Translations under genes and position numbers: made by a program
Shown here: one piece after another, positions 2,674-41,422 of the stretch
Position numbering within the stretch: the first letter of the stretch is position 1
How the letters are laid out: each line of letters begins with the position of its first letter
DNA from: Auanema rhodensis
Lineage: Eukaryota > Animalia > Nematoda
DNA: 64,000 nucleotides
Direction of reading: 5' to 3'
Assembly: GCA_964057225.1 (NCBI GenBank)
Contig: OZ059897.1
Span: 11,284,001-11,348,000 of the forward strand
Notes under the pieces: generated by a model
The model's database searches: none
What the model saw: only the letters and a program-made list of their open reading frames with translations
What the model was told of the DNA's origin: nothing

Positions 2674-5600
2674 TTAAACACAATAACCGTAGGGTAAAGT
2701 ACTATAATCTTGTAGATAACAAAGTTTATCCATTACAACTTTAGTACTAAAGTAGTTTCAAAGTTTACCACTGATGCTGCCGTGTGGTCCAACCTCTGAA
2801 AATTATAAAATTATTTGAAAAGTCAAAGCTCGTACTTACCACTCCCTTTGCCTTTGTTACATACTTTACATCACCAGCTGCATTTACAAGTTTATAACTA
2901 TAAACTTTTGCCGCTGGTGATACAAACTTGGTCATTGACCAACCATCGGGTATTTCAGAGGTTAGTTTACCTAACCATTCACCCTTCATATCCTCAATTG
3001 GATCTGACTCATCCAGGCACCTTTGATAAATTAGTGAATCCGTGTCTGAATAATGTAAGTTTAAATTGAATACAAGTATAAAATTACCTGTATACACCAA
3101 ATTCTTTCCAATTTTCTCCATTGCCTTATACAATAGTAGCCTTGCATGAGCGGTTGTATAGGCCGCAAAAGCTACATTTGTAAAAGGCGGTGGTGCCAAA
3201 TGTGAATCCTCTGGTACTGTTGTGCAGTACGCAACATTATCCACAATTTTGAACCCAGTGAGTTCCCTTGCAGGATCAGTAATAATCCTACCAATTTCTG
3301 GGTCCTCAACACCAATAATCTTGGTTTGGGCTTTATCTGGTCTTTGACCCATTTTACCCCAGACACTATAAGAAAATTTGTAATGTATTGTTTTAAAAAG
3401 TTTACAAACCTATTTAGCTGCAGTTTGGCAATGCTACGCATGGCAGCATTCTTTTCATTTTTATTGCTCTCCAGAGCAACACCAGTGTTCTCCTCGTGTT
3501 CTTGGAGATAAATCACCTGTAAAATTCTATTTAATGTGATACTTTTATTAAAACATACCTTTTCTTCCTCTGTCATGTTTGACTTTGGCCAGCCCGACGC
3601 CTCTTGTTTAATTTTTATGTACTTTTGTACAAACTCTTTAAACAGGCCGCCTTGTTGCCATTCTTCCCAGTGCCACACCTCATGCACATGAAGCACTTTA
3701 TAGCCACGTTGTATGGCACACTCGAGCTCAACATGTGTCACGGTTAGATGCAGCTTTCGAGCATTTACATCATTTTGGTGCTCACATGCTACATTTTTAC
3801 TTTTGACTGCACAAGTGCGGCAGTTTGTAAAAATTAGTTTACCGCCAATACGTGTCCCTAATACAGGGTACAGCAAATTTGTGGGTGCAAGCACGTCACA
3901 TTTTACTAGACCCTTGTATGGGCAACATGTCTCAAAGCTTTTGAAACCCTCAGTAATCACTTTGGGATTACCTACAGGGTAGTAGGCATCAAAGGCTGTG
4001 ACATATGGATATAGTGAACAAAAGTCCACATACTCGAGCGAGTATCTATCCGAAGCTTGTGCCAAAAGCTTATATGTCTGGGTGCGGCCACCGGTAAAGG
4101 CATCTCTAGGTGCCAAGCGTGTAACAACATTTGTTTCACGCATAAATTTCGCCATTTCTTCATTGGCCGAAATTTGAGCATTAATTTCGTGCTCCCACAC
4201 TGTGGTAACACTAATGCCTTGGCTTTGAATTGCTTGAAGCCTTTTCATGGTTTTATCATAAACCTAAATTTTTCAAATTAAAATGATTAAAAAAGTCACA
4301 ATTACCTCTTCCATTGTTTCACCATTTCTGCCTGGTGCTATAGCGCTCTTGTTGGTGCACTGGGGGCAACCATGGTAAATGCAACCATTAATCTACAAAA
4401 ATTTGCATTTTTTACATTTATTACAAATTACTCACCTCATAGCCATGATTGGCAACGGGGTCATAAGCATCGAGTAGATAGCGATGGCCATCTACTCTCA
4501 CTGCAAATTCGCCACCATTAAGCTTATGCATTAATGGGCGGCCCAATCCTTGTTCTAGCCATTTTATATACTTTATGGCTATTATACTCTGCTTTTGACC
4601 GGCATAATAACCAGTCTCGGGCAGAATACCCACTTGGTTCTCTTTAATATGATTCATTTTCAACTGTAATATACTAGTTTTGAAAATGCTTGTATTTTAA
4701 AAAACTTGCCTGGAATAAAGAGAAACTGGCAAATGTCATACATTGTATGACAGGGTTCCAGCCAGTGGTGGCGGTTGCCAACTTCATGTAAACTTTCATA
4801 CAGTTGGTTAAAATACGGACATCTGTCCTACAATATTCCAAAAGCTCTTCATCAAAATCAAACGCTCTTTGATTACGCTCTTCATACCAAATATTGAATG
4901 AAGCTAGGTCTTCTGCTTTCATTCTAGCAGTACAATAGTACTGTTTTGGTGGTAAAGATGGCAACACTTTGCCATAATTTATTGGATGATTATAGAGGTA
5001 AGGAAACTGTCCTTTACTCATATCAGGTACACCAAATGCCTTGGGTAACGCTGATAGGGGTAAAGGCACTAATAAATAACTATCTTTAAAATATAAATGA
5101 TTAAATTTTTGACCTCTTAAAGGCTTGACAACCATGCTTATAATCTTGGTCCCATTTAAAATTGGATCAGGATATATACCACGGTTTATCAGCCTAGACA
5201 CCAAGAAATGTATGTCAAAGCGTGAACCATTATGCGCAATCAAAATTGCATTATCATTCTCAACAGAGTTGAGTAACCAATCAAGGAAACGATCTGTTAC
5301 AGACCATTCACTATCACCTTGTTGGTACCCAAAATGGCCCTCCTTGGTTGTGCATTTTTCGCATGAATTGGCGTCTATACAACTTTCACAAAATTTGTTA
5401 TACACAACCATATTGGGCCATTGTTCATCTGCATATTCATGAACATTTGTACCGTTTTTTAACACAACCGTTTCAAAGTCATAAAATATAATCTTAAACA
5501 AGTAAGCATTACACTTGTAAAGATGTTAAATACAAACCTTGTATTTCTCTTGCCTCTTTTTTAATCCTTCTTCTTGTCGTTAGGTGGTACCCAACAACAA

Positions 5601-7778
5601 GAATGATCTTCAGGCTTTGTCTGGCCACACTTTTTGCAAAATTTCTCATTGCAATTGTGCGGTCTATCAGCACGTACTCTGTGATAATGATCACAGTTTT
5701 CACATGTCTGAATTTAGTCTTGTTAAATTTTATATATATTTTTTAAATTACCTTAAACATTCGACATGTTTTTCTAATATGCCTGTCAAAGCATTGACGA
5801 GTTTTAAACAAAACTCTACAACTATCACATCTTATGCTACTTTCAACCACATTTTCCATCGAATTACATTTTAAGGTGTGGCATTTCTTACACTTGGCTT
5901 TACATCTATGCAACACTGTTTTGTAAGATAATTTACAGTGTTGGCATATAATACCATCAAAAAGCTGTGATCTACTACAAGTTGTAATACAGTCATAATG
6001 ATTATTTCGGTAGCCTAGTGTTACCACTTTGCTAGCCGTTTCATTAAAGATACGCTGAATAGCGTACATACGCTGTCCAGGTGGCCTACCGTATAATACA
6101 AACTTATAGTCTGTATTACAACTTGCAATAATATTTAAATGATTCAAATTATAATTTGGTAAATGTACAGAAATACCACACCTATTTAATAAATTGATAT
6201 GATGTGGTTGATTTGGCAACAAGATGTAGTTCCGACGAAGATTTTGTATCCTCCGCTTTTCAACAACATCTTCTGCTGCCTCTTCATCGGCTTTCCACAT
6301 TCCCACAACTGCTGCTCTAGCCAGGCAATGTGTATCAGTGTTCTCAATTGTGCCAGGTATTTTGAGTTCGGCATCAAAATAGAAACCAACTCTACCTTCA
6401 CCAGGCATCAGGCTTGGCTGCACCGGTCTTTCATCAAACACATACATTTCAATATTCATTGCCTGGCTAATTACAGCCTCTCGCTTTGATTGCTGCACCT
6501 TGCTGATGGCATTCATGATGGCAACGCCATCCAAATGCTCCCTTCTACGGAAATCCATAAATATGGATCCCTTTTCAAAGGATGGGTGCTCTATTGATAA
6601 ACAAAACAGTGCTTTTTGTTTATCTGGCACACCACTTTCAGCAAGGCACCGATCAAGAAACTCATTAAATAGCCGCGGCATGACAACATGCATTGGCTCA
6701 TTAATGGCTTCCAAATGTGGGAACGTGAGCGATCTAACGACCACGTTGGTGAACCGACCAGTTCGTTTTATGCGTCGGTGTGACCACTATAATACACACT
6801 TTTTATAATGGTTATACGCTTTTAATTTAAATATAAATAATTTTTGTTTATAACTTTTAATAAATTTACTTTTCTTTAAATTATTTTTATTAATGTTTAA
6901 AAATAAATGGCATTTGATTTTTAAATATAAAGTTTTTTTTTTCAACTTTGAAAAAACTTTTATAAACATTTGTTAATGTTTAAAAATAAATGAAAAGGTC
7001 AAGATTGTGTTTTATTATTTTACTAGTTCAAAATGTTTGAAATATTTATAATTTGTAAGAATTCAAAATCGGTTGAAAGAAAGATAGATGAGGAAAGATA
7101 GATAGATAGTGAGATGAAATGTAAAGATTTTAAAATGAATGCTGTTCAAAAGAATGAATATGTAAATTTCAAAATACTTGCAATTTATTTGATAAAAGAT
7201 ATAGATTGAGATGAAATGTAAAGATGAGAGAGAGAGAATTTTATGAATGCAATTGAAAAAGAGAAATAAATTTCAAAATGTTTTCAAAATATGCAACTGG
7301 AGCAAGAGAAAATTTCATGTTTCAAAAGATATATTATGAAATGATATGTAAATAAAAGATCGCACCTCTATTTTACAGACATCGTTGAAAGCCGCTCCAT
7401 ATCCGACTTGCCCTCCACTGGTTGATGGGGTAGCGGGATCCCATTCTCTTAAAAAGAAAAAACTAATTGTTATAATTTTTAATATCGCTTACTCATCACT
7501 GTCATCCAAGGTTATTACTTCAATAACCCTTGATGATGAGGGCCCACTGTTAAAAGTGGGTGATGTGGGCTCACAGAGCTCGATCCCACCAGCCTCGGTA
7601 AACTTTATACGTTTACTAAAAAACAAAATATATATAAAGATTCAAAATTGTGTTAAATTACCTGAGCTGATTAATCTCTTCATAATCAAATCCTAGCTCT
7701 TCACATAAACGTTTATAACTGAAAAAAGAAAAAGTTTACAAACAAATAATCAAAAAGACACAACCTATTAGCAGCCAT
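2674..7778 (-). pseudogene. Protein-primed family B DNA polymerase, 14 predicted exons; 4-bp exon frameshift (~5563) and C-terminal deletion
   Basis: Exonuclease motifs FYDFET, AHNGSRFD, YCRTD; polymerase motifs DFCSLYP, KLQLNSVWGK, YTDTDS restored by splicing short introns. Confidence 0.88.
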
Positions 7779-8177
7779 TGTACCTTGATATAATGAATAT
7801 ATCAGTCTACACATTGCTGTTGGCATTGTAATTTGTTATGTAACATGGATTTGGGTACAGCTGTCAAAACTAGTAGTTGCGATAAACTTTAAAATAAATA
7901 AGCTTATTGAATACATCTGTTTTTATTGTCCCCGTCGGATTAATTTTTGTTATTAGTTCTTATTAAATTAACTGTATGCGTTTCATTGAGGTCAGCGCAA
8001 CTGTTTGTTAATCTTATTGTATTTACCTTCAATGTGTGCTCTATTTAGTTATTGTATTGTTATATTAGTAAAATAAAGTTAAAAACTAATCTTTTATTAT
8101 AATTTGAAACCTTTACTTGTTAGAATAAATATAATTAATAACAATTTGTAATTTCAAAAATTAATAATAATTTAATG

Positions 8178-8331
8178 TCGTTCTTATCGAATTAACTTTC
8201 GATATGTGTTCCATTAAATTTTGGTATTTCATATCGTTCTTATCGAATTAACCTTCGATATGTGTTCCATTGAATTTTGGTATTTCATATCGTTCTGATC
8301 GAATTAACCTTCGATATGTGTTCCATTGAAT
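8178..8331 (+). repeat. Three 56-bp tandem repeats inside the TIR
   Basis: TCGTTCT(T/G)ATCGAATTAAC(C/T)TTCGATATGTGTTCCATT... starting at 8178, 8234, 8290. Confidence 0.9.
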
Positions 8332-8824
8332 TACCCATAACAAGTACGGTGAACAAATTTATCTACATGCAAAAATTTTATTGATCTTTAAAAATACAAA
8401 TAAAATAGTACAAACACAATACAATAAAAAATAAACAAAATAAGTAAACAAACATAATTAATAAATATAATAACTGAATAAAGAAATAAAATTTTAAAAC
8501 AAATTAATATATTTAAAATTTAAATATAATTTATATATAAAATTTAAAGTTTAAATATAATTTATATATATAAAATTTAAATATATTTTAAATATTTAAA
8601 GTTTAAATATAATTTATATATATATAAAATTTAAATATAATTTAAATATTTAAAATTAAGTTTTTTATTTTTACTTAATATATTTAAAAATAATTAAAAA
8701 TATATACATACATTTGAAAAAGCATATTTAAATTTGATTAAAAAAAAAAATCATGCTTTAAATCATGACTTTTATATTTAAAAAAGGAAAATCCATGAAC
8801 CATGATCCCAAAATATGATTTTAA

Positions 8825-8935
8825 CAGCTGACGCTCAAAAATATGTTTTTGACAGCTGACGCGCCCCAAAAGTATGTTTTTAGCAGCTGACGCCCCCAAA
8901 AGTATGTTTTTGACAGCTGTTTGGGGGCGTGGTTA
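8825..8935 (+). repeat. Subterminal ~30-bp repeats with four CAGCTG cores
   Basis: CAGCTG at 8825, 8853, 8884, 8914. Confidence 0.85.
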
Positions 8936-8959
8936 GTAAATTTTGCACGGCTCTCTACT

Positions 8960-10303
8960 CACCAACGTGGTCGTTAGATCGCTCACGTTCCCACATTTGG
9001 AAGCCATTAATGAGCCAATGCATGTTGTCATGCCGCGGCTATTTAATCAGTTTCTTGATCGGTGCCTTGCTGAAAGTGGTGTGCCAGATAAACAAAAAGT
9101 GCTATTTTGTTTATCAATAGAGCACCCATCCTTTGAAAAGGGATCCATATTTATGGATTTCCGTAGAAGGGAGCATTTGGATGGCGTTGCCATCATGAAT
9201 GCCATCAGCAAGGTGCAGCAATCAAAGCGAGAGGCTGTAATTAGCCAGGCAATGAATATTGAAATGTATGTGTTTGATGAGAGACCAGTGCAGCCAAGCC
9301 TGATGCCTGGTGAAGGTAGAGTTGGTTTCTATTTTGATGCCGAACTCAAAATACCTGGCACAATTGAGAACACTGACACTCATTGCCTGGCTAGAGCAGC
9401 AGTTGTGGGAATGTGGAAAGCCGATGAAGAGGCAGCAGAAGATGTTGTTGAAAAGCGGAGGATACAAAATCTTCGTCGCAACTACATCTTGTTGCCAAAT
9501 CAACCACATCATATCAATTTATTAAATAGGTGTGGTATTTCTGTACATTTACCAAATTATAATTTAAACCATTTAAATATTATTGCAAGTTGTAGTACAG
9601 ACTATAAGTTTGTAGTATACGCTAGGCCACCTGGACAGCGTATGTACGCTATTCAGCGTATCTTTAATGAAACGGCTAGCAAAGTGGTAACACTAGGCTA
9701 CCGAAATAATCATTATGACTGTATTACTACTTGTAGTAGATCACAGCTTTTTGATGGTATTATATGCCAACACTGTAAATTATCTTACAAAACAGTGTTG
9801 CATAGATGTAAAGCCAAGTGTAAGAAATGCCACACCTTAAATTGTAATTCGATGGAAAATGTGGTTGAAAGTAGCATAAGATGTGATAGTTGTAGAGTTT
9901 TGTTTAAAACTCGTCAATGCTTCGACAGGCATATTAGAAAAACATGTCGAATGTTTAAGGTAATTTAAAAAATATATATAAAATTTTACAAGACTAAATT
10001 CAGACATGTGAAAACTGTGATCATTATCACAGGGTGCGTGCAGATAGACCGCACAATTGCAATGAGAAATTTTGCAAAAAGTGTGGTCAGACAAAGCCTG
10101 AAGATCATTCTTGTTGTTGGGTACCACCTAACGACAAGAAGAAGGATCAGTTAAAAAAGAGGCAAGAAAAATACAAGGTTTGTATTTTACATCTTTACAA
10201 GTGTAATGCTTACTTGTTTAAGATTATATTCTATGACTTTGAAACGGTTGTTTTAAAAAACGGTACAAATGTTCATGAATATGCAGATGAACAATGGCCC
10301 AAT
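8960..10303 (+). pseudogene. Maverick B-type polB fragment, antiparallel to A1
   Basis: Begins CACCAA right after the A terminus; direct repeat of 23440-24783; breaks at ...GGCCCAAT. Confidence 0.9.
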
Positions 10304-10424
10304 GGAATTTCATGATACTGCTCTTGAAACTCTTTATCAGATTCATGGTAACAACGATGAAACTCTTCTGACCACGTTTGACCAAATGACAGCTGCCCGT
10401 ACAAAAAACTTATGTTTGTATGTT

Positions 10425-10825
10425 TGCAATACTTTATAATTCTTTACTTTATTCTTTCTATAATTTTTATGTATTTCTTTATTCTGTGTTTTATATTTTA
10501 TATTTTATAATTCTAGTTTCTTGTCTTAGTGTATTATGTTATCAGTTATATTTTGCAGCCTCAGCATTTTCTGAGATAGTTATAATTGTCATTGACAACT
10601 TATAACCTTTCGTGGAAAATGCTGATAACATTCGCTATATAAGCTTGCCATTCAACTGAATCTTCAGTTGGCGGACTTATCTTTATCTTTATTTGTTTAT
10701 TGTTTAAATGCTTTTTATTTATAATAAATCTTTCTCTCTTCCTCAAATCTTATTGTTTCTTTTACAACATATCAATCTAAGGGTCAATAACATGGAACAT
10801 TAATATCCAAATAATGGATATTACA
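10425..10825 (+). repeat. 5' LTR
   Basis: TG...CA; matches 19403-19803 apart from about 3 substitutions. Confidence 0.93.
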
Positions 10826-10838
10826 TGGAGGTTCCACC
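10826..10838 (+). promoter_or_regulatory. Primer-binding site, tRNA-Gln
   Basis: TGGAGGTTCCACC immediately after the LTR; complementary to the tRNA-Gln 3' end GGUGGAACCUCCA. Confidence 0.85.
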
Positions 10839-11892
10839 TTAGAATCTTTTTACGATTTTTCGAACTCGATTAAATTATGAATTATCATTCAGTTAAAGAG
10901 AATTTATTTTTTTGAGCTATTTCCCTGGGCTACCACCTCTCTTTCCAATTCAGTACGAAGGGTCTCACTCATTTTTTTAATAAACAGGGTTGATATTTTG
11001 CGCAAGGGTGAGATACTGAATTGGCCAACTTTTCGATTTCTTTTTGTTTCTGCGCAGTTGTACTTTTGATTTTTCATTGTGGCGAAAAATATATATTTTT
11101 TGGAAATGGAAAAGCTGTTTGATATAAGCAAAATTGGACCTTAATAAAGTCAATTTGCGATATTTTTGATAAAGATTACAAGTTTGTACTAACAGAATGG
11201 CCACTGTAAGAAAATAACATCCGCTGTATCATTTGTCATATTTGAATTTAAACCTTCCTCTCATAATTTTTTGATTGTTGATTCAAGTTGAAACAAAGAC
11301 TTTGGAATTTGAAAGATGCCTTGTTTGGTAATTCATTGTTATTCAGTAACAATTGAGATTTTGATTTGTCCGCCATACTCACTTCTCTAATTTATCAATC
11401 ACATTGTCACATAATCATATCCTATCATCATCTTAACAATTAATTATATTCACACTTTTTTTTTCCTCTCTATAGTTTGTTTTTCTATGAATTCATTAAT
11501 TAATTAATCTTCAACCCATATTATTATATATCTTTTTTTTCTTCGATTTTTTTTTTCATGTTATTCACTAATTTATTCACTATTAACTATTCATATTCTT
11601 ATCTTGTTTACTAACTTATTCCACTATTTTACATTGTAGATTGTTCTGACTTTCCTCCCTTTCCAAAACGGCAACCTCCAAGAATAATTATACGGATACG
11701 CCTTTCCGTACCTCTCAAAGATTAAGAGACAAGAGAAATCGTATTTCTCGATTTCCTTTTCCCGATAGTGACGACTCGTTTGACAACGATTTAAGTCCAT
11801 CGGACGACGAAAAAACGCCACACTTGGCTGTAACACCGAAAAAAGAAAAAACTCCCCAGCGCGAAAAACTACCTCTGAAGCTTCTACTCAAC

Positions 11893-14800
11893 ATGAGACC
11901 ACATGAGCAATCAAACAGAGATTCAACTCTGGAAACGCCTAATTTAATGGCATCTCCAGAGTTGACCAAAAACTTAACAAAAGTTCTAGGCAGTCCACAC
12001 TGCCCCAAATACGATGGTAGCCGAAGCTTTCGATCGTACATCGATATATTTAACCGATTTGCGAATGCTGCGGGACTTTCGGTAATTGAAAGAATTTTTC
12101 TTCTTCCTCTGCTGCTTCAGCAGAATGATTCTGCGATCTCTGCATATAACTCGATTCCTTCCGAAATTCGTGAACGAGGGCCTTGGAAAGACCTTGTTTC
12201 ACAATTGGCAGAGTTACTTTGCCCTGCCACGGAAAGGAATTTCACGATCGCGAAGTTGCTACGCTCGACGCAAGGAGAGAAAACTGTTACTCAGTTTGCC
12301 TCATACTTGGAAGAAATGGCTTCCAGTATTATGAGCCCAACTGATCGAGAAAGAGAGCTCATATTAAGATCAGCTTTCTTAAATGGATTGAACGCTGATT
12401 TAGGCATAATTGTTCAAGGAAAAGATCCGAAGACTTATGAGGAAGCAAAAAGGACAGCACGTTTTGAAGAAGCAATTCGTGCTAACTATAAAAAACAGCA
12501 TGAAGAAAACTCAACTATGCAAGAGTTGATCTCTGCAGTTCAGAAGATCACCATGAAGGAAAATAGGAACCAAAGGAACCATCAGCAGCCACGAGATTTC
12601 GAACGGAACAATGGCAACAATTCAAGAAACCCTTGGAAGAATTTCAAAAATAAATTCAGCAGGAACTCTGGCCCTCGACAAAATTATGGAAACAACTACT
12701 CAATGGAGAGTAATCACCATTCGAGAGAACCTCGCAACAATTATCAAAGAGAAAATCGAGACAACTTTGCCAGGAATAATCGCGACAATTATCCAAGAGA
12801 GAATCAAGGCAATCAAAGACGATGGAAACCTCGATTCAATATAAATACTATTGCATTACCATTCCTGCTCACAACAATAATCTGCACATTTCTGCTTCCC
12901 ACTGTGAATGCTTCATATCAACTATGTTTAGCTCATAAAGGAGGAATTCTGATGACACCACCAGAGATAACAGGATGCCAACGGAAAGCAATTCAACAAG
13001 CTCATCAAGTTAACGTTGAATTGTTCATTCCTAAACAAACCGTCGTAACATGGGAAGCGTGGAAGTGTTATACACGCATCTATCGATTATGTGTAACGGA
13101 TCAATTTTGGTTCCGAGAAAGCAACGACACCATCATTGGTAATGGATATGTATCTGTAGAAGAATGCCGTATAGCTGCTCGAGACAAGAAATGGAAAAAT
13201 GAAAAACTGTTGAGCGCTAATCCACTTACATATGAAGCTCCTAAGCCAGTATATGAACCGGAACGTTTCTTCAGTTTTACTCAATGCGCCAACTTAACTC
13301 AATTTGTGATGGAGCGAGGAGTTATTACAAATTTAAAGGACAATACTATTGTATCTGACTTAATTGTCAACGCCGAAGGCTGTAAAGCTCAAATGGGAAG
13401 CTGTACATTTGGAGATGGTTCAGTAGTTTGGAAACCACCCACACCCCGAGCACCATGCCAATACACACGTATTGGACCTCTGTATGGAATACTTGGAGAT
13501 CAAACACTGCTAATATCAAGTCTAGAAACAGCACTTGTCTTAGCCAACACCTCAGCATCTACTACAACTCAATCTTGTTTTTCTTCACCAATTTTTGAAT
13601 CCACTACTGAGACTCTTGTCTCGTTTATTGATTATCCGCATGCATATTCTCTACTGGATCTAACAAGTTATTTGGATAATCAAATGGATCCTTCACGCCA
13701 ACGCTATAAACGTTCAACAAATTCATCCTTAATTGCGTCATTTCGCTCAGAAATGGAATATAAGTTAACTCCTATTCAAATATTGGATCTACCGTTTGCT
13801 AGATATACTGTCACGTCTGGCGGAAATACCATACGATATATTCATAACTGGTATCACTATCAATCAGTTAGCAACGAATATCAGAACCTGACTGTTATTG
13901 CTCGATATCATCAATTTTTGCTGTCAGCTGTCCATATTTTGAACATTACTGATCATACTATAGATTACTGGGCAAATTTAAAAGACTTCCGCGATCCGAA
14001 TATTCTCTTACTACATGCTCTAGGAGGAGAAGAAAGCAAGATGATTACAAAAATGTGGATAGAACAAATGGAGCCTAGTTTTGTCATCGGTCAACTAGCA
14101 CACCGACTTCCTCTCAATTATATAAAAAGAATAGTTAAACCAGGCAATTCTACAATTTTGGTTGCAAGAGATAAATTATGGGAATTGATACAAATACCTG
14201 CAATCTTATCCGAAACAGAATATGTGCCACCACTCGAATTTTTGATATTCACAGTATATCAAAACCATCTCAACTTCACATTTGGAGATCCACGTTCTGT
14301 GGTATATAAAGCAAAAGAATTACTTCGTGAACTACGCTATCAGTATTCTCAACCTCAACTGATAGAATATTATCGAATGAAACTGTTCTTTCATAGTCAT
14401 TTTATGCAACGACAAGTGAAAGATCAAGTATATGAAATGAAATTAAAGCTGTTGGATAACTGGACACTCAGAAACCGAGAAACCATTTTTGGAATACCGA
14501 TGCCTTCGAATAAAGAAGATCTCTACAGCCGTAACATCAATATTGACGCTAAACAATTAACTGATTTATTGTCATGGTTTTCAAAACCAGCACCTGAAGA
14601 GATTACAAAAAGAGTATTCAGTCGCTCTATCACCACTAAAACTACGCCAACTGCACGATTTCTTAGTGCTACCTCAAAACCTGTTGTAAATACATCATCT
14701 ACTACAAAACAAACAATTAGTACTATTCAAGGGATGACATCAATGCAACCCATGATTGGAAGCATAGAGAAAGCTCAAGAATTATTCGGCACTCACTTAA

Positions 14801-16779
14801 CTGATCACCAGAATACTATACTTCGACATCGAGATGCATTAACTACCATCAACAAACTCAACTATGGATTTGAACGAATGAGAACCATACTGGTCGAAGA
14901 ATTTCATCATCAACATCACAGCATATGTCATGCTCAACTTGAACTTATTAAGACATGGCAAGCTATATTTAATATCAATCCTACGATTGCTATCAGATCT
15001 ATTATGCAACGAGATGATATAGTGGCTCGAATAATTGGACGGAATCTTATTCGGGTTTCAACCTGTCAGCCAATAGAACCAATTCACATTTATCGCAACC
15101 ACACATACAAAGATAAGTGTTATTTAGAAACACCCGTCATCACGGATGATGACCGCCTCTACTTTGCACCTCAAGATTCAGCAGATTTGGAAGCATATGG
15201 AACTGAAATTCCATGTGAAACAGTAGAAAATGATATATGGAAAGAGGATGGAGAATGGAAATCCCTCAACGGAGTTACAAACGTAACTGCTTTAAACATT
15301 GGTTCAGATCAGTATCCCGATCTAGCAGCCATTCGATTTTCACAAAGAAATCTTTATGAAAATATCACCGATGAAAACTTAGTTAGAACAATAAGCCTAA
15401 CATATGGACACATTTTCGCTACCAATCCTCATAGAAATTTTCTACGAGTTATCACGAATCAAGCGAATTTGCCAGGCTTATCAGAATGGTTTACAAAAAG
15501 TAACGAACTTTTTAGTTCTACTCAAAATATTGCATCATCACTATGGGAACGAGGAGTTGATTTCTTTGCTGGATCCCTCAACAGAATGTTTATCTCTGCA
15601 GGTGTTATGATAGTTATATTAATCTTTGGATCAGCATTATACATTATTGTTGTATCTTATATCAAAGAGAAAGTTCCTATCTTAAATGTGAATGCAGTTG
15701 AACAACACGAACTACTCAACGCTGACATCGATGTTCCAGCCGACGACGAAACTATTCGAAGATATTTTCCTACTGTCATCACTTTTATTCCTATTATTAT
15801 ACCTTTTGTTGGATGCTGTGCAACGAACAAAAGAGAACTCCCATATATAAGAATCGAAGCAGAAGGCAGAGGACTCGTAGCTTTATGGGATAGCGGAGCA
15901 TCTGTTTCATATTTGAAGGAATCATCAGTACGCTATTTAGGAAAAGAGAATTTCAACTCAACTAAAATCTCTGCCACCGCAGCAAATGGATCAATATTCA
16001 ACTTTCTGGGTACAATAACGTTGGACATTGTTATTGCTGGATACCATCTTTCACACACATTTTTAATCTCTGAGGATAAACATTGTCCTACTGAAATGTT
16101 ACTTGGTTTGGACATCATGAAAGCATTAGAAGAAAAAGGAATAACAACTTCTCTACAAGCTCTACGCAAGCAATTAATAGTTGGAAACCATTTTCTACCA
16201 TTATTATCCGCTAACCAGAAGAGCTTTCGCATCAGTTCAGACACCGTTTCAATTATAAACATTAGAGAATCTATTATTCCACCCCGAACTAAAGCTATGA
16301 TTCATCTACAATTGGCAAAAGAACTACAACCAAAACAATACGCTCTTATACGATGTGGAAATGGACCTATTCAATTCACACCTACTGCTATCAAGACTTC
16401 ACCACTCACAATATTCGCCATCAATACAGCAAATTATGAGGTGAAGTTAACAAGAAACACCATTATTGGAAAAGGAAAAATAGCAGAAGAAATTGGAATC
16501 CCACATATACCAGACTATATTCCACCAGAAGCTGATTGGTCAGATAAATTGCCTATTTTTGAGAAGAATCCTTTCGATAACTTAAAATTCGAATCAACGG
16601 ATCTATCTAAAAATCAACGTCAAAATCTCAAAACTATGTTGAGAAGATTCAAAAATGCTTTTTTTAACGAAGATCGGAACATTGGATTATTCAAAGGACC
16701 AATAGAACATTCAATCACTTTGAGAACCGATATGGACCTGCCCAAATCTCGATCATATCGAGTTCCTTTGGGTAAGTGA
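11893..16779 (+). CDS. Gag-Env-protease polyprotein
   Basis: Capsid-like PKYDGSRSF...FLNGL; signal-like IALPFLLTTIICTFLLPTVNA; Cys-rich ectodomain; furin site RYKR; TM helix; aspartic protease ALWDSGAS. Frame is open from 11650, first ATG at 11893. Confidence 0.88.
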   Translation: MRPHEQSNRDSTLETPNLMASPELTKNLTKVLGSPHCPKYDGSRSFRSYIDIFNRFANAAGLSVIERIFLLPLLLQQNDSAISAYNSIPSEIRERGPWKDLVSQLAELLCPATERNFTIAKLLRSTQGEKTVTQFASYLEEMASSIMSPTDRERELILRSAFLNGLNADLGIIVQGKDPKTYEEAKRTARFEEAIRANYKKQHEENSTMQELISAVQKITMKENRNQRNHQQPRDFERNNGNNSRNPWKNFKNKFSRNSGPRQNYGNNYSMESNHHSREPRNNYQRENRDNFARNNRDNYPRENQGNQRRWKPRFNINTIALPFLLTTIICTFLLPTVNASYQLCLAHKGGILMTPPEITGCQRKAIQQAHQVNVELFIPKQTVVTWEAWKCYTRIYRLCVTDQFWFRESNDTIIGNGYVSVEECRIAARDKKWKNEKLLSANPLTYEAPKPVYEPERFFSFTQCANLTQFVMERGVITNLKDNTIVSDLIVNAEGCKAQMGSCTFGDGSVVWKPPTPRAPCQYTRIGPLYGILGDQTLLISSLETALVLANTSASTTTQSCFSSPIFESTTETLVSFIDYPHAYSLLDLTSYLDNQMDPSRQRYKRSTNSSLIASFRSEMEYKLTPIQILDLPFARYTVTSGGNTIRYIHNWYHYQSVSNEYQNLTVIARYHQFLLSAVHILNITDHTIDYWANLKDFRDPNILLLHALGGEESKMITKMWIEQMEPSFVIGQLAHRLPLNYIKRIVKPGNSTILVARDKLWELIQIPAILSETEYVPPLEFLIFTVYQNHLNFTFGDPRSVVYKAKELLRELRYQYSQPQLIEYYRMKLFFHSHFMQRQVKDQVYEMKLKLLDNWTLRNRETIFGIPMPSNKEDLYSRNINIDAKQLTDLLSWFSKPAPEEITKRVFSRSITTKTTPTARFLSATSKPVVNTSSTTKQTISTIQGMTSMQPMIGSIEKAQELFGTHLTDHQNTILRHRDALTTINKLNYGFERMRTILVEEFHHQHHSICHAQLELIKTWQAIFNINPTIAIRSIMQRDDIVARIIGRNLIRVSTCQPIEPIHIYRNHTYKDKCYLETPVITDDDRLYFAPQDSADLEAYGTEIPCETVENDIWKEDGEWKSLNGVTNVTALNIGSDQYPDLAAIRFSQRNLYENITDENLVRTISLTYGHIFATNPHRNFLRVITNQANLPGLSEWFTKSNELFSSTQNIASSLWERGVDFFAGSLNRMFISAGVMIVILIFGSALYIIVVSYIKEKVPILNVNAVEQHELLNADIDVPADDETIRRYFPTVITFIPIIIPFVGCCATNKRELPYIRIEAEGRGLVALWDSGASVSYLKESSVRYLGKENFNSTKISATAANGSIFNFLGTITLDIVIAGYHLSHTFLISEDKHCPTEMLLGLDIMKALEEKGITTSLQALRKQLIVGNHFLPLLSANQKSFRISSDTVSIINIRESIIPPRTKAMIHLQLAKELQPKQYALIRCGNGPIQFTPTAIKTSPLTIFAINTANYEVKLTRNTIIGKGKIAEEIGIPHIPDYIPPEADWSDKLPIFEKNPFDNLKFESTDLSKNQRQNLKTMLRRFKNAFFNEDRNIGLFKGPIEHSITLRTDMDLPKSRSYRVPLGK
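12850..15663 (+). other. Class III-like envelope glycoprotein domain within the polyprotein
   Basis: YQLC..P....C, WKC, VEEC, C....GSC....GSVVW...C and ICH...INPT...RDDIVA....STC....CY...PV patterns; many N-x-S/T sequons; C-terminal TM. Confidence 0.75.
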
Positions 16780-19345
16780 AGTTGAACGTCAAGTAAAAGA
16801 AATGCTGGACCAAGAAGTAATAGAAACATCAACATCAAGTTTTACAAGTCCAGTCGTCTTAGTCAAGAAGAAAGACAACTCATTCCGCTTTGTAACGGAC
16901 TTCCGTGCACTCAATAGTGTCACACAGAAACAGACTTATTCTATTCCTCATATACCAGAAATAATCGACAGCACTGCAGGAGCTCGATACTTCACAAACA
17001 TCGATCTCGTATCGGGATTTTTTCAAATTCCTTTACGTGAAGAAGACCGTCACCTCACTGCATTTGTGACCTCATCAGGAGTTTATCAATATTGCAGAAT
17101 GCCGATGGGTCTCTGTGGAGCTCCACATACATTTCAATCAGCTGTTCGCTATTTGCAAAATCAAGTAAAATGTCGACTTTTTGTTTATCTGGATGATCTA
17201 CTCATTATATCAAACACAGCTGAACAACATCTGGAGGATATAGAAGAAGTGTTACAAGCTTTACAAGGATTAGGAATGAAAGCAAAACTAAGTAAATGCA
17301 AATTTGCAGCTACACAAGTTAAATTTCTTGGATTTATAATTGGTCGTGATGGAATACAACCTGATCCATCAAAAATTACAGCCGTTAAGAAATTTCCAAC
17401 TCCCAAAACGGTCACCGCTATTCGTTCATTCCTTGGAATGACAAATTATTTTCGGCGATTCATCAGAGACTACGCCAAAATAGCCGAACCGTTGTATCAA
17501 CTCACACACAAGGATCAAGATTTCGAATGGACGGAAGAACGTGAAAAAGCATTCGAGACTCTCAAGAAAGCTCTATGCACAGCACCAGTTCTGAAGCCAC
17601 CAACAAATGGAGCACCTTTTGTTATTGAAAGTGACGCTAGTACTATTGCAATTGGAGCAGTCTTACTACAAGATACAGGAAATGGATTACACCCTGTTGC
17701 GTTCGCAAGTAGGAAGCTCTCACCTACAGAAAGAAAATACCCACCTATCGAATTAGAAGCTTTGGCACTCGTCTACGCATTACAACAATTTCGCACATAT
17801 GTTTTAGGCACGTCAACTAAGCTAATAACGGATCATCGACCACTAACCAGTCTAATGAGTAGAAGAGATCTTATTGGAAGACTAGCGAAATATCAGTTAA
17901 TGATCCAGGAATATGATATTGTGATTATGTACCGTCCAGGACGTATGAATAGTGTATGTGATGCACTATCCAGATACATAGGCAACGAAGCTAACGATGG
18001 TCCTAAACCGAAACTACAGAAGACAACGCCAACAACAAGTTTAACGGATATCCAAGAAACCATCAACTATCTCATAAATGTAACCAATGTGGAAACTCTG
18101 GATACCGACAAACTAATTCAGTTACAACAAGGAACACCATGGATTAAGGAAACTATTGCTGATATGTTAACGGAACAACCTAAACAGATTAATAGCGATA
18201 GATATATTGTTATCGACGGAGTTTTGCATGCTCGACCTAACAAACAATATCTTACTCCAAGGATTATGATTCCAAAACAAAAGACATTGAATCAAGTACT
18301 TGTGAAACTTTTTCATGAAGACGCAAGAATTGGAGCGCATCAAGGAATCAAAAGAACACATGCAGCATTATCAAGAAGATTCCATTGGACAAATATGATG
18401 GAAGATGCGAAAGAGATCGTCAGCCAATGCCTGACATGCGCAAAAAGGAAAATAAATCAACATGATACAACGAGAGAACCATATGGAAAGTTTGTTACCC
18501 CACAAAAACCATTTGATAGGATTCATATGGATGTGACAGGACCTTTTTCCCCTAGCACTAATGGATTTAAATATATTCTTTCTATTCAAGATGCTTTTTC
18601 GAAATGGATAACGAGCATACCTTTACGCACACAGAATGCCGAAGAAACAGTCCGAAAGTTCCTGACGAATTTCGTCTTCATTTTTGGACCACCAGTGAGC
18701 ATCGTGTCTGACAATGGAGGAAATTTTATATCTAAAGAATTCAAGTTAATGTGCAACGAATTTGGAATTGTACAAACCTTCTCTCTGCCATATCACAAAA
18801 ATACAAACGGTCAAGTGGAACGACTACATCGAACCATCCAGGAATGTTTATCCACTTGTGCTGAAAACCGTGTCTCTCAATGGGCCTCACAATTACCTAA
18901 AATCACATTCGCGTTAAATACAATCCCAAGTACAACTACCGGAATCAGCCCATACATTGCTTTATTTGGAAGAGACGCACGCCTACCTATGGACCGTCAA
19001 TTACCAGGACAACCTCATCTAAATTCTCCTGAAGATGACGAATTATTGGAAAGAAATGACAACCGGAAAAATACCTGGGATTCTATTCAAGAAAAAATTC
19101 AATTAAAATCAATTGAACAACAAAATCGGCTGAATAATAGTAACCGAATAGCATCACGTATATTTGAAATAGGTGAAATGGTACTATTAAAGGATATGAC
19201 GGTTCACGGCAAATTGCGACCCACTTATAATGGACCGTTCAAAATTACAGGCGTATACAACTCATATGTGGAATTGGAAATGAGTCAAGGAAAGATGAGA
19301 AAAGTACATAAGGATCTCATCAAAAAGCTTGCTACAACATTATGA
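16778..19345 (+). CDS. pol: Pol: reverse transcriptase, RNase H, integrase (+1 frame relative to upstream ORF)
   Basis: SPVVLVKKKD, DFRALN, DLVSGFFQ, MPMGL, YLDD; ESDAS, TDH, DALSR; HHCC, HMD/SDNG/VER, GPF. Confidence 0.95.
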   Translation, partial: EVERQVKEMLDQEVIETSTSSFTSPVVLVKKKDNSFRFVTDFRALNSVTQKQTYSIPHIPEIIDSTAGARYFTNIDLVSGFFQIPLREEDRHLTAFVTSSGVYQYCRMPMGLCGAPHTFQSAVRYLQNQVKCRLFVYLDDLLIISNTAEQHLEDIEEVLQALQGLGMKAKLSKCKFAATQVKFLGFIIGRDGIQPDPSKITAVKKFPTPKTVTAIRSFLGMTNYFRRFIRDYAKIAEPLYQLTHKDQDFEWTEEREKAFETLKKALCTAPVLKPPTNGAPFVIESDASTIAIGAVLLQDTGNGLHPVAFASRKLSPTERKYPPIELEALALVYALQQFRTYVLGTSTKLITDHRPLTSLMSRRDLIGRLAKYQLMIQEYDIVIMYRPGRMNSVCDALSRYIGNEANDGPKPKLQKTTPTTSLTDIQETINYLINVTNVETLDTDKLIQLQQGTPWIKETIADMLTEQPKQINSDRYIVIDGVLHARPNKQYLTPRIMIPKQKTLNQVLVKLFHEDARIGAHQGIKRTHAALSRRFHWTNMMEDAKEIVSQCLTCAKRKINQHDTTREPYGKFVTPQKPFDRIHMDVTGPFSPSTNGFKYILSIQDAFSKWITSIPLRTQNAEETVRKFLTNFVFIFGPPVSIVSDNGGNFISKEFKLMCNEFGIVQTFSLPYHKNTNGQVERLHRTIQECLSTCAENRVSQWASQLPKITFALNTIPSTTTGISPYIALFGRDARLPMDRQLPGQPHLNSPEDDELLERNDNRKNTWDSIQEKIQLKSIEQQNRLNNSNRIASRIFEIGEMVLLKDMTVHGKLRPTYNGPFKITGVYNSYVELEMSQGKMRKVHKDLIKKLATTL

Positions 19346-19402: not shown

Positions 19403-19803
19403 TGTTATACTTTATAATTCTTTACTTTATTCTTTCTATAATTTTTATGTATTTCTTTATTCTGTGTTTTATATTTTATATTTTATAATTCTAGTTTCTT
19501 GTCTTAGTGTATTATGTTATCAGTTATATTTTGCAGCCTCAGCATTTTCTGAGATAGTTATAATTGTCATTGACAACTTATAACCTTTCGTGGAAAATGC
19601 TGATAACATTCGCTATATAAGCTTGCCATTCAACTGAATCTTCAGCTGGCGGACTTATCTTTATCTTTATTTGTTTATTGTTTAAATGCTTTTTATTTAT
19701 AATAAATCTTTCTCTCTTCCTCAAATCTTATTGTTTCTTTTACAACATATCAATCTAAGGGTCAATAACATGGAACATTAATATCCAAATAATGGATATT
19801 ACA
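19403..19803 (+). repeat. 3' LTR
   Basis: TGTTATAC...ATTACA, preceded by a purine-rich AAGAGCGGTAGCA. Confidence 0.93.
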
Positions 19804-22800
19804 CCCAAAATGGCCCTCCTTGGTTGTGCATTTTTCGCATGAATTGGCGTCTATACAACTTTCACAAAATTTGTTATACACAACCATATTGGGCCATTGT
19901 TCATCTGCATATTCATGAACATTTGTACCGTTTTTTAACACAACCGTTTCAAAGTCATAAAATATAATCTTAAACAAGTAAGCATTACACTTGTAAAGAT
20001 GTTAAATACAAACCTTGTATTTCTCTTGCCTCTTTTTTAACTGATCCTTCTTCTTGTCGTTAGGTGGTACCCAACAACAAGAATGATCTTCAGGCTTTGT
20101 CTGGCCACACTTTTTGCAAAATTTCTCATTGCAATTGTGCGGTCTATCAGCACGTACTCTGTGATAATGATCACAGTTTTCACATGTCTGAATTTAGTCT
20201 TGTTAAATTTTATATATATTTTTTAAATTACCTTAAACATTCGACATGTTTTTCTAATATGCCTGTCAAAGCATTGACGAGTTTTAAACAAAACTCTACA
20301 ACTATCACATCTTATGCTACTTTCAACCACATTTTCCATCGAATTACATTTTAAGGTGTGGCATTTCTTACACTTGGCTTTACATCTATGCAACACTGTT
20401 TTGTAAGATAATTTACAGTGTTGGCATATAATACCATCAAAAAACTGTGATCTACTACAAGTTGTAATACAGTCATAATGATTATTTCGGTAGCCTAGTG
20501 TTACCACTTTGCTAGCCGTTTCATTAAAGATACGCTGAATAGCGTACATACGCTGTCCAGGTGGCCTACCGTATAATACAAACTTATAGTCTGTATTACA
20601 ACTTGCAATAATATTTAAATGATTCAAATTATAATTTGGTAAATGTACAGAAATACCACACCTATTTAATAAATTGATATGATGTGGTTGATTTGGCAAC
20701 AAGATGTAGTTCCGACGAAGATTTTGTATCCTCCGCTTTTCAACAACATCTTCTGCTGCCTCTTCATCGGCTTTCCACATTCCCACAACTGCTGCTCTAG
20801 CCAGGCAATGTGTATCAGTGTTCTCAATTGTGCCAGGTATTTTGAGTTCGGCATCAAAATAGAAACCAACTCTACCTTCACCAGGCATCAGGCTTGGCTG
20901 CACCGGTCTTTCATCAAACACATACATTTCAATATTCATTGCCTGGCTAATTACAGCCTCTCGCTTTGATTGCTGCACCTTGCTGATGGCATTCATGATG
21001 GCAACGCCATCCAAATGCTCCCTTCTACGGAAATCCATAAATATGGATCCCTTTTCAAAGGATGGGTGCTCTATTGATAAACAAAACAGTGCTTTTTGTT
21101 TATCTGGCACACCACTTTCAGCAAGGCACCGATCAAGAAACTCATTAAATAGCCGCGGCATGACAACATGCATTGGCTCATTAATGGCTTCCAAATGTGG
21201 GAACGTGAGCGATCTAACGACCACGTTGGTGAACCGACCAGTTCGTTTTATGCGTCGGTGTGACCACTATAATACACACTTTTTATAATGGTTATACGCT
21301 TTTAATTTAAATATAAATAATTTTTGTTTATAACTTTTAATAAATTTACTTTTCTTTAAATTATTTTTATTAATGTTTAAAAATAAATGGCATTTGATTT
21401 TTAAATATAAAGTTTTTTTTTTCAACTTTGAAAAAACTTTTATAAACATTTGTTAATGTTTAAAAATAAATGAAAAGGTCAAGATTGTGTTTTATTATTT
21501 TACTAGTTCAAAATGTTTGAAATATTTATAATTTGTAAGAATTCAAAATCGGTTGAAAGAAAGATAGATGAGGAAAGATAGATAGATAGTGAGATGAAAT
21601 GTAAAGATTTTAAAATGAATGCTGTTCAAAAGAATGAATATGTAAATTTCAAAATACTTGCAATTTATTTGATAAAAGATATAGATTGAGATGAAATGTA
21701 AAGATGAGAGAGAGAGAATTTTATGAATGCAATTGAAAAAGAGAAATAAATTTCAAAATGTTTTCAAAATATGCAACTGGAGCAAGAGAAAATTTCATGT
21801 TTCAAAAGATATATTATGAAATGATATGTAAATAAAAGATCGCACCTCTATTTTACAGACATCGTTGAAAGCCGCTCCATATCCGACTTGCCCTCCACTG
21901 GTTGATGGGGTAGCGGGATCCCATTCTCTTAAAAAGAAAAAACTAATTGTTATAATTTTTAATATCGCTTACTCATCACTGTCATCCAAGGTTATTACTT
22001 CAATAACCCTTGATGATGAGGGCCCACTGTTAAAAGTGGGTGATGTGGGCTCACAGAGCTCGATCCCACCAGCCTCGGTAAACTTTATACGTTTACTAAA
22101 AAACAAAATATATATAAAGATTCAAAATTGTGTTAAATTACCTGAGCTGATTAATCTCTTCATAATCAAATCCTAGCTCTTCACATAAACGTTTATAACT
22201 GAAAAAAGAAAAAGTTTACAAACAAATAATCAAAAAGACACAACCTATTAGCAGCCATTGTACCTTGATATAATGAATATATCAGTCTACACATTGCTGT
22301 TGGCATTGTAATTTGTTATGTAACATGGATTTGGGTACAGCTGTCAAAACTAGTAGTTGCGATAAACTTTAAAATAAATAAGCTTATTGAATACATCTGT
22401 TTTTATTGTCCCCGTCGGATTAATTTTTGTTATTAGTTCTTATTAAATTAACTTTATGCGTTTCATTGAGGTCAGCGCAACTGTTTGTTAATCTTATTGT
22501 ATTTACCTTCAATGTGTGCTCTATTTAGTTATTGTATTGTTATATTAGTAAAATAAAGTTAAAAACTAATCTTTTATTATAATTTGAAACCTTTACTTGT
22601 TAGAATAAATATAATTAATAACAATTTGTAATTTCAAAAATTAATAATAATTTAATGTCGTTCTTATCGAATTAACTTTCGATATGTGTTCCATTAAATT
22701 TTGGTATTTCATATCGTTCTTATCGAATTAACCTTCGATATGTGTTCCATTGAATTTTGGTATTTCATATCGTTCTGATCGAATTAACCTTCGATATGTG

Positions 22801-23439
22801 TTCCATTGAATTACCCATAACAAGTACGGTGAACAAATTTATCTACATGCAAAAATTTTATTGATCTTTAAAAATACAAATAAAATAGTACAAACACAAT
22901 ACAATAAAAAATAAACAAAATAAGTAAACAAACATAATTAATAAATATAATAACTGAATAAAGAAATAAAATTTTAAAACAAATTAATATATTTAAAATT
23001 TAAATATAATTTATATATAAAATTTAAAGTTTAAATATAATTTATATATATAAAATTTAAATATATTTTAAATATTTAAAGTTTAAATATAATTTATATA
23101 TATATAAAATTTAAATATAATTTAAATATTTAAAATTAAGTTTTTTATTTTTACTTAATATATTTAAAAATAATTAAAAATATATACATACATTTGAAAA
23201 AGCATATTTAAATTTGATTTAAAAAAAAAATCATGCTTTAAATCATGACTTTTATATTTAAAAAAGGAAAATCCATGAACCATGATCCCAAAATATGATT
23301 TTAACAGCTGACGCTCAAAAATATGTTTTTGACAGCTGACGCGCCCCAAAAGTATGTTTTTAGCAGCTGACGCCCCCAAAAGTATGTTTTTGACAGCTGT
23401 TTGGGGGCGTGGTTAGTAAATTTTGCACGGCTCTCTACT
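19804..23439 (+). mobile_element. Maverick A-type right end (polB 5' part on minus strand, ATG 22258, plus TIR)
   Basis: Direct repeat of ~5328-8959 at offset ~14480; ends CTCTCTACT at 23439. Confidence 0.92.
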
Positions 23440-26400
23440 CACCAACGTGGTCGTTAGATCGCTCACGTTCCCACATTTGGAAGCCATTAATGAGCCAATG
23501 CATGTTGTCATGCCGCGGCTATTTAATCAGTTTCTTGATCGGTGCCTTGCTGAAAGTGGTGTGCCAGATAAACAAAAAGTGCTATTTTGTTTATCAATAG
23601 AGCACCCATCCTTTGAAAAGGGATCCATATTTATGGATTTCCGTAGAAGGGAGCATTTGGATAGCGTTGCCATCATGAATGCCATCAGCAAGGTGCAGCA
23701 ATCAAAGCGAGAGGCTGTAATTAGCCAGGCAATGAATATTGAAATGTATGTGTTTGATGAGAGACCAGTGCAGCCAAGCCTGATGCCTGGTGAAGGTAGA
23801 GTTGGTTTCTATTTTGATGCCGAACTCAAAATACCTGGCACAATTGAGAACACTGACACTCATTGCCTGGCTAGAGCAGCAGTTGTGGGAATGTGGAAAG
23901 CCGATGAAGAGGCAGCAGAAGATGTTGTTGAAAAGCGGAGGATACAAAATCTTCGTCGCAACTACATCTTGTTGCCAAATCAACCACATCATATCAATTT
24001 ATTAAATAGGTGTGGTATTTCTGTACATTTGCCAAATTATAATTTAAACCATTTAAATATTATTGCAAGTTGTAGTACAGACTATAAGTTTGTAGTATAC
24101 GCTAGGCCACCTGGACAGCGTATGTACGCTATTCAGCGTATCTTTAATGAAACGGCTAGCAAAGTGGTAACACTAGGCTACCGAAATAATCATTATGACT
24201 GTATTACTACTTGTAGTAGATCACAGCTTTTTGATGGTATTATATGCCAACACTGTAAATTATCTTACAAAACAGTGTTGCATAGATGTAAAGCCAAGTG
24301 TAAGAAATGCCACACCTTAAATTGTAATTCGATGGAAAATGTGGTTGAAAGTAGCATAAGATGTGATAGTTGTAGAGTTTTGTTTAAAACTCGTCAATGC
24401 TTCGACAGGCATATTAGAAAAACATGTCGAATGTTTAAGGTAATTTAAAAAATATATATAAAATTTTACAAGACTAAATTCAGACATGTGAAAACTGTGA
24501 TCATTATCACAGGGTGCGTGCAGATAGACCGCACAATTGCAATGAGAAATTTTGCAAAAAGTGTGGTCAGACAAAGCCTGAAGATCATTCTTGTTGTTGG
24601 GTACCACCTAACGACAAGAAGAAGGATCAGTTAAAAAAGAGGCAAGAAAAATACAAGGTTTGTATTTTACATCTTTACAAATGTAATGCTTACTTGTTTA
24701 AGATTATATTCTATGACTTTGAAACGGTTGTGTTAAAAAACGGTACAAATGTTCATGAATATGCAGATGAACAATGGCCCAATATGGTTGTGTATAATAA
24801 ATTTTGTGAAAGTTGTATAGATGCCAACTCATGTGAAAAATGCACAACCAAGGAGGGCCATTTTGAGTACCAACAAGGTGATAGTGAATGGTCTGTAACA
24901 GATCGTTTCCTTGATTGGTTACTCAACTCTGTTGAGAATGATAATGCAATTTTGATTGCGCATAATGGTTCACGCTTTGACATACATTTCTTGGTGTCTA
25001 GGCTGATAAACCGTGATATATATCCTGATCCAATTTTAAATGGGACCAAGATTATAAGCATGGTTGTCAAGCCTTTAAGAGGTCAAAAATTTAATAATTT
25101 ATATTTTAAAGATAGTTATTTATTAGTGCCTTTACCCCTATCAGCGTTACCCAAGGCATTTGGTGTACCTGATATGAGTAAAGGACAGTTTCCTTACCTC
25201 TTTAACCATCCAATAAATTATGGCAAAGTGTTGCCATCTTTACCACCAAAACAGTACTATTGTACTGCTAGAATGAAAGCAGAAGACCTAGCTTCATTCA
25301 ATATTTGGTATGAAGAGCGTAATCAAAGAGCGTTTGATTTTGATGAAGAGCTTTTGGAATATTGTAGGACAGATGTCCGTATTTTAACCAACTGTATGAA
25401 AGTTTACATGAAGTTGGCAACCGCCACCACTGGCTGGAACCCTGTCATACAATGTATGACATTTGCCAGTTTCTCTTTATTCCAGGCAAGTTTTTTAAAA
25501 TACAAGCATTTTCAAAACTAGTATATTACAGTTGAAAATGAATCATATTAAAGAGAACCAAGTGGGTATTCTGCCCGAGACTGGTTATTATGCCGGTCAA
25601 AAGCAGAGTATAATAGCCATAAAGTATATAAAATGGCTAGAACAAGGATTGGGCCGCCCATTAATGCATAAGCTTAATGGTGGCGAATTTGCAGTGAGAG
25701 TAGATGGCCATCGCTATCTACTCGATGCTTATGACCCCGTAGGTGAGTAATTTGTAATAAATGTAAAAAATGCAAATTTTTGTAGATTAATGGTTGCATT
25801 TACCATGGTTGCCCCCAGTGCACCAACAAGAGCGCTATAGCACCAGGCAGAAATGGTGAAACAATGGAAGAGGTAATTGTGACTTTTTTAATCATTTTAA
25901 TTTTTTAAATTTACGTTTATGATAAAACCATGAAAAGGCTTGAAGCAATTCAAAGCCAAGGCATTAGTGTTACCACAGTGTGGGAGCACGAAATTAATGC
26001 GTGAAACAAATGTTGTTACACGCTTGGCACCTAGAGATGCCTTTACCGGTGGCCGCACCCAGACATATAAGCTTTTGGCACAAGCTTCGGATAGATACTC
26101 GCTCGAGTATGTGGACTTTTGTTCACTATATCCATATGTCACAGCCTTTGATGCCTATTACCCTGTAGGTAATCCCAAAGTTATTACTGAGGGTTTCAAA
26201 AGCTTTGAGACATGTTGCCCATACAAGGGGCTAGTAAAATGTGACGTGCTTGCACCCACAAATTTACTGTACCCTGTATTAGGCACACGTATTGGCGGTA
26301 AACTTATTTTTACAAACTGCCGCACTTGTGCAGTCAAAAGTAAAAATGTAACATGTGAGCACCAGAATGATGTAAATGCTAGAAAGCTGCATCTAACTGT

Positions 26401-41412: not shown

Positions 41413-41422
41413 TATATATATA

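Follow-up and report, generated by a model that had tools for sequence, protein, structure and literature searches.

A Ty3/gypsy element of Auanema rhodensis with a predicted gB-like fusogen between Gag and protease, and candidate protease sites on both cytosolic sides of Env

The window analysed here is a stretch of 64,000 nucleotides (nt) from the nematode Auanema rhodensis (GenBank assembly GCA_964057225.1, contig OZ059897.1, positions 11,284,001 to 11,348,000 of the forward strand), and all positions below are counted from its first letter. Between two long terminal repeats (LTRs) it holds a retroelement of the Ty3/gypsy kind, in which an envelope protein (Env) predicted to be a gB-like class III fusogen is read in one frame between Gag and the protease (PR), while the reverse transcriptase (RT) and integrase (IN) lie in another frame (Table 1). 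It adds a diverged family to the GAG-ENV-POL elements, a group already described, and its gene order is therefore not new. Our account as a whole, which we hold to be highly probable, is that the reading frame of this copy is broken, and that in intact relatives a single protein comprises capsid, fusogen, protease, RT and integrase and likely threads the membrane of the endoplasmic reticulum (ER) once in and once out.

The stop-to-stop frame at 11650-16779 counts 1709 open codons; begun at its ATG (11893), translation gives the protein P0001 (11893-16779) of 1628 amino acids (aa), in agreement with the single long frame of about 1630 aa described in an earlier note on this DNA; the order given there, capsid, N/R-rich region, signal segment, ectodomain, transmembrane (TM) helix and DSG protease, is likewise confirmed at its coordinates by Pfam and hydropathy. 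Pfam places Retrotrans_gag at aa 87-167 of P0001 (E 2e-4) and gag-asp_proteas at aa 1321-1410 (E 7e-7). Of the 111 residues of the linker at aa 206-316, 26 are N and 17 are R; this linker is likely the nucleocapsid equivalent, and no CCHC knuckle was found in it. A third and weaker hydropathy peak, at aa 1292-1312, was rejected as a likely second TM helix, for it aligns with a conserved pre-protease stretch that is non-hydrophobic in many relatives; it probably belongs to the N-terminus of the protease. The order of protease, RT, RNase H, H2C2 zinc finger and integrase by Pfam is that of Ty3/gypsy-type Pol and the nearest Pol relatives are gypsy-type, while the BEL/Pao markers Peptidase_A17, DUF1759 and DUF5641, found by Pfam in control homologues, were not found in P0001 or P0002. 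The two LTRs differ by 1 mismatch in a 397-nt core and by 2 more within the first four letters. There is no target-site duplication, because the five-letter stretches bordering the two element ends do not match; the near-identity of the LTRs on which the earlier note relied stands, and the young age drawn from it is plausible but weakened by the missing duplication.

Table 1. Features of the element, with positions in the window
Feature	Positions	Strand	Basis or remark
5' LTR, TG...CA, 401 nt	10425..10825	+	LTR-LTR comparison
Primer-binding site, tRNA-Gln type	10826..10837	+	Reverse complement equals the tRNA-Gln 3' end given for two Caenorhabditis elements
Gag capsid domain, aa 1-205	11893..12507	+	Pfam Retrotrans_gag; 30-37% identity to Gag of Caenorhabditis relatives
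N/R-rich linker, aa 206-316	12508..12840	+	Composition
[VIL]N-x-[VIL] motif, aa 317-320	12841..12852	+	Candidate own-protease site, Gag / signal segment
Internal signal-peptide-like segment, aa 320-340	12850..12912	+	Hydropathy peak (aa 319-340); kept in relatives
Env N-terminal half, predicted gB domains I-II, 10 conserved Cys	12913..13701	+	Model, Cys conservation, gB matches
Furin-type site, aa 604-607	13702..13713	+	Motif; similar sites in many relatives
Cys-free, predicted helical insert, then S/T-rich linker, about 350 aa, lineage-specific	13714..14757	+	Insert comparison, model
Env C-terminal half (predicted): long central helix, gB domain IV-like beta region, membrane-proximal helices	14758..15585	+	
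Transmembrane helix, aa 1232-1257	15586..15663	+	Hydropathy; kept in relatives
[VIL]N-x-[VIL] motif, aa 1266-1269	15688..15699	+	Candidate own-protease site, Env tail / protease
Aspartic protease, catalytic DSG at aa 1333	15760..16152	+	Pfam PF13975
Frame break at RT start	16770..16779	+	Open reading frame map, alignment with relatives, DNA-run contigs
RT, RNase H, H2C2 zinc finger and integrase frame P0002, 873 aa, other frame than P0001	16724..19345	+	Pfam
3' LTR	19403..19803	+	Short purine-rich tract upstream; Maverick-type DNA downstream

The assignment of Env to the class III fusogens, proposed in the earlier note, is borne out by a predicted structure with a gB-like fold and a long central helix, and by matches of this Env to gB, with Nyavirus G also among its matches. 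The predicted local distance difference test (pLDDT) is mostly 80-98 in the N-terminal half of the model. By Pfam, Monjiviricetes_fusion lies at aa 969-1126 of P0001 (E 9e-12, above cut-off) and Glycoprotein_B at aa 986-1066 (E 2e-4, below cut-off). As in env of the HSV/gB type (HSV, herpes simplex virus), an ectodomain with conserved Cys lies between signal segment and TM helix, and at an identity of 20-30% relatives keep all 14 Cys (14/14) as well as the aromatics of the hairpins that likely form the fusion loops. To call this ectodomain Cys-rich was an overstatement, for the 14 Cys in its 891 aa stand at the two ends, 10 in the first 222 residues, 4 C-terminal and 0 in the middle. With the ectodomain as query, phmmer gave 0 matches to PDB sequences, and a word-index search gave nothing at E<=0.001, which is weak evidence, the HMMER scan having found 223 homologues. 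Among 22 listed coding sites that differ from other runs, 12 are synonymous and 10 non-synonymous (in Env, 4 and 4), counts that are not equal to dN/dS.

The most variable part of Env follows the furin-type site. Across relatives the N-terminal and C-terminal scaffold halves of gB lie from about 0 to 487 aa apart, and here 380 aa apart. The 28 inserts longer than 120 aa that were compared form several unrelated groups, and the present one matches only P0004, an Auanema protein (E 6e-9). It is predicted to be helical, at low confidence (model mean pLDDT 50, built on 2 sequences). Foldseek found no match to it in the PDB at E<=0.001 with a query model of that same mean pLDDT of 50, the best score in the ESM Atlas was 0.85, under the threshold of the tool, and a word-index search returned nothing at E<=0.001, which again is weak evidence. 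Our guess is that the insert acts in receptor binding or shielding.

The HMMER scan with Env gave its homologues at E<=0.001, and the following counts come from the 150 matches listed. Gag precedes Env in one protein in 34/150 and Env precedes protease in 39/150, with Gag-Env-protease found in 15 and Gag-Env-protease-RT-integrase in 7. The env-in-middle order is thus a family trait, and the doubt raised in the earlier note, that other members might lack the inserted env, is answered. Pol as query gave 119 new proteins, 27 of them with this env, which lies upstream of RT in 27/27. The nearest named Pol relatives, rhabditid gag-env-pol polyproteins of Auanema, Caenorhabditis and Diploscapter, are 45-55% identical, and Env is 23-30% identical to its nearest relatives. 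In an RT tree of 16 rows, built from env-search hits only and with no outgroup, the element is sister to P0010 of Caenorhabditis japonica at 97/98. A Pfam check of 18 long homologues identified three as BEL/Pao elements with env after pol, and BEL/Pao P0033, P0070 and P0076 have an env homologous to that of this element. In P0009, P0013, P0039 and P0143 two protease domains stand in tandem after the Env TM helix, either by duplication or as a gene-model artefact.

The nematode endogenous retroviruses (NERVs) of Sacco and co-workers reportedly have one continuous gag-env-pro-pol frame with a Nyamiviridae-like env, with which the Nyavirus G match of the present Env agrees, and are also said to carry extra frames such as a helicase; these extra frames have no counterpart here, where no further plus-strand open reading frame of at least 100 aa was found between the LTRs beyond Gag-Env-PR and Pol. 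The order itself, which the earlier note took for new, had been published: according to the part of PMC13524379 (Chary and Hayashi, eLife 2026) available to us, elements of Nematoda, Bryozoa and Platyhelminthes have HSV/gB-type env only, in the order GAG-ENV-POL, and Sacco et al. 2022 (J Gen Virol 103:1739, doi 10.1099/jgv.0.001739) are credited for the nematode case, that is, flipped env/pol in Metaviridae with an RNA-virus-type glycoprotein. Of the 36 elements from nematodes in the supplement, 8 have a primer site of tRNA-Gln type, and that of Clat_errantivirus_4 and Ctro_errantivirus_1 is identical to the one found here. Our element shares with these errantiviruses the gB-type env between signal peptide and TM helix, the variable furin site and the LTRs. 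However, its sequence is that of a distinct family, and this copy fails their 'intact' filter of uninterrupted reading through RT and integrase, which concerns the state of a copy and not a trait of the family. Precursor processing, splicing and frameshifting are not discussed in the main text of that paper, as far as it was available. Tas, a BEL/Pao element, also has a gB-like env according to the available part of PMC9094657, but in Tas, Atlas virus and the mosquito Anakin-type elements of BEL/Pao env comes after pol, unlike here, and the env of Atlas is of class II. MFUS-1 of nematode Mavericks (bioRxiv 10.1101/2022.07.12.499685, seen in part) is likewise a gB-like class III fusogen in a mobile element, but there it has a gene to itself, and the element is a DNA element.

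Regarding Pol, the earlier note had described an intact frame; this copy is not intact, and Pol as a separate product is not supported. At about 16775 the frame shifts inside the conserved N-terminal block of RT, by which RT, RNase H and integrase fall out of frame; in an alignment of 15 relatives this stretch is read straight on from the protease. The contigs of all three DNA runs covering the break (X1, X2, X3) differ from the window at that place. We therefore ascribe the break to this one copy, to its strain or to the assembly. A programmed frameshift was rejected, because the lesion lies inside a block that the relatives read through and is absent from X1, X2 and X3. Since the relatives read PR straight into RT, intact members would yield Gag, Env, PR, RT and IN from one frame at 1:1:1:1:1. 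By ordinary translation the present copy would make Gag-Env-PR but not RT and integrase, and its movement would therefore depend on help in trans from another copy.

For the passage of such a protein through the membrane, the relatives offer two regularities. A signal-like hydrophobic segment stands before the ectodomain in 30/30 testable gag-env relatives (4/34 were dropped, their Env match not extending to the start), and the ectodomain is followed by a TM helix in 30/31 testable env-protease relatives (8/39 were dropped for want of a C-terminal Env match or catalytic motif). A signal segment before Env and a TM helix after it would leave Gag and PR-Pol cytosolic and Env lumenal, and the ER-threading polyprotein put forward in the earlier note is consistent with the conserved segment before Env.

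On the cytosolic side of both Env ends lies a short motif, [VIL]N-x-[VIL], of which a third copy is found at aa 447 of P0002, in the linker between RNase H and integrase. Within 48 aa before the signal segment it occurs in 20/30 relatives (shuffle mean 3.1), between TM helix and protease in 21/31 (6.3), and in the RNase H-integrase linker, a place at which the protease has to cut, in 11/16, the Pol of the window included (3.9); none of 2000 shuffles reached any of the three observed counts. In a second set of relatives, which overlaps the first in that four of its proteins have 84-100% identity to proteins there, it stands before the signal segment in 7/11 (shuffle mean 1.4) and between TM helix and protease in 18/22 (3.0). 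Before Env it occurs in 0/9 of a hand-picked control, which is weak, three of these proteins being confirmed BEL/Pao, one having env before RT, and some windows missing the signal segment. On the simplest reading, the motif is likely the site of the element's own protease at all three places. We take it to resemble known gypsy protease sites. The available part of PMC6952103 gives no sequences of Ty3 protease sites.

The course of events in an intact member may be proposed as follows. Gag would be synthesized in the cytosol, the internal hydrophobic segment would serve as a signal, and host signal peptidase would likely release the N-terminus of Env. The TM helix would halt the transfer, after which protease and Pol would fold on the cytosolic side, and clustering of Env at the membrane would draw the protease domains together. 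The protease would then likely cleave just upstream of the signal segment and just downstream of the TM helix, giving free Gag, Env and PR-Pol, and likely also in the RNase H-integrase linker, and furin would likely cut Env along the secretory path. Particles would bud carrying Env and then fuse with another cell, likely from soma to germline.

Several points tell against this account. The Env model has an overall predicted template modelling score (pTM) of 0.42, with the insert at low confidence. The motif was picked after the junctions had been inspected, and the relatives are not independent; about 1/3 of them have no motif in the tested windows, and P0001 holds it at 4 other places, of which three lie within the ectodomain, on the lumenal side. 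Since gene models underlie many of the homologues, a single protein is not always a single genomic frame. The RT tree, which left out closer Pol hits and the published reference set, is poorly resolved, with 2/13 of its branches starred.

An equal ratio of Gag to Pol is unusual for LTR elements, which counts for another explanation, one that we regard as unlikely, namely that env-skipping spliced RNAs, or gag-only derivatives, mainly supply Gag and Gag-Pol while the fused precursor gives mostly Env. It is favoured by a contig in which 12759 is followed at once by 19008, so that signal peptide, env and almost the whole of pol are missing, in the DNA runs X1, X2 and X3 (three studies) and in X12, which was taken as RNA by guess, its type not being on record; the joint falls on a gag codon boundary, and a stop follows four codons on, at 19020-19022 in the window sequence, where no difference is listed. 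However, the joint lacks a GT donor, shows microhomology of 6 letters and is found in DNA; for these reasons it was rejected as a splice and is a deletion. In addition, no plus-strand env-skipping splice was seen, with RNA cover in 8/30 bins in one run, and nematode Atlas elements likewise encode Gag-Pol-Env as one polyprotein (PMC9094657, in the part available).

The gag-only derivative deserves attention in itself. Its joined contigs differ from the window copy in 13/152 letters on the 3' side and 7/145 on the gag side (about 91-95% identical), and therefore it is a separate lineage. The contig depth at the joint is 46, 121 and 170 vs about 60, 63 and 140 over env, which is not a copy number. 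Its likely product, judged from the reading frame, is a free Gag about 293 aa long, ending before the signal peptide. Most simply it is a non-autonomous parasite; on a bolder reading it supplies Gag to the full element. The latter may be extended to a two-component system, which we put forward as speculative and doubtful: a membrane-threaded precursor would be cut by its own protease on the cytosolic side at either end of Env, a gag-only satellite with an evolution of its own, in several strains and RNA, would give the excess Gag that a 1:1:1:1 polyprotein cannot, and the furin-exposed helical domain of 350 aa would be a swappable receptor-binding module.

There is also an antisense spliced transcript over the integrase end (18605-19056, minus strand), with no long open frame, the longest having 94 codons. 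Contigs of X12 and X13, both of one study, skip 18732-18777 (46 nt) and 18897-18939 (43 nt), each bounded by GT...AG on the minus strand, and both skips are absent from the DNA runs. In X13 another 76 letters at the low end of this contig are unplaced.

Env might instead be a membrane anchor that fixes the assembly site or times the activation of the protease, with the element moving within the cell. The entry mechanism of gB-type errantiviruses is called unknown in the available part of PMC13524379, and the wide range in length of the post-furin region among relatives would suit such a role; but the relatives keep the class III scaffold in full, with its Cys and likely fusion-loop aromatics, for which a mere anchor would have no need, and we consider this role quite improbable. 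That the gag-env-pro fusion is a chance nested insertion, a recombinant or an assembly artefact may practically be dismissed, in spite of the near-identical multi-kb duplications and inversions that fill the window and the missing target-site duplication, for single X1 contigs cover 12682-15802 and 15773-18801 with X2 and X3 pieces in agreement, and dozens of diverged relatives have the same, published order.

The surroundings consist largely of rearranged Maverick/Polinton copies, at 1-10303, 19804-39500 and 47500-59500, with near-100% duplications and inversions of 3-4 kb. Their genes by Pfam include a protein-primed DNA polymerase B split over frames, an integrase with chromodomain, an adenovirus-type C5 protease and an ATPase. 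No second match to the env profile was found in the six frames of the window, and hence no env-like fusogen among these copies. The right end of the gypsy element sits inside one Maverick copy, and about 120 nt between Maverick DNA and the 5' LTR (10304-10424) have no match elsewhere in the window; together with the missing target-site duplication, the latter suggests that the two ends come from different insertions or from later rearrangement. Further downstream, 39524-42049 holds a 1.2-kb perfect inverted repeat with two facing LTR fragments at its centre (40552-40844 and 40843-41021), 90-93% identical to the LTR of the element, and 42692-43750 is a frame of 352 aa with a paired-type helix-turn-helix and a weak DDE_3 match by Pfam, that is, a Tc1/mariner-like transposase.

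For the membrane-threaded precursor that we prefer, precise candidate cleavage sites are offered by the motif conserved on the cytosolic side at each end of Env, which makes the processing of a gag-env-pro-pol precursor directly testable. At the same time, for the enveloped retroelements of nematodes, the gag-only derivative offers a lead on the supply of Gag, and the variable insert after the furin site a lead on host or cell targeting.
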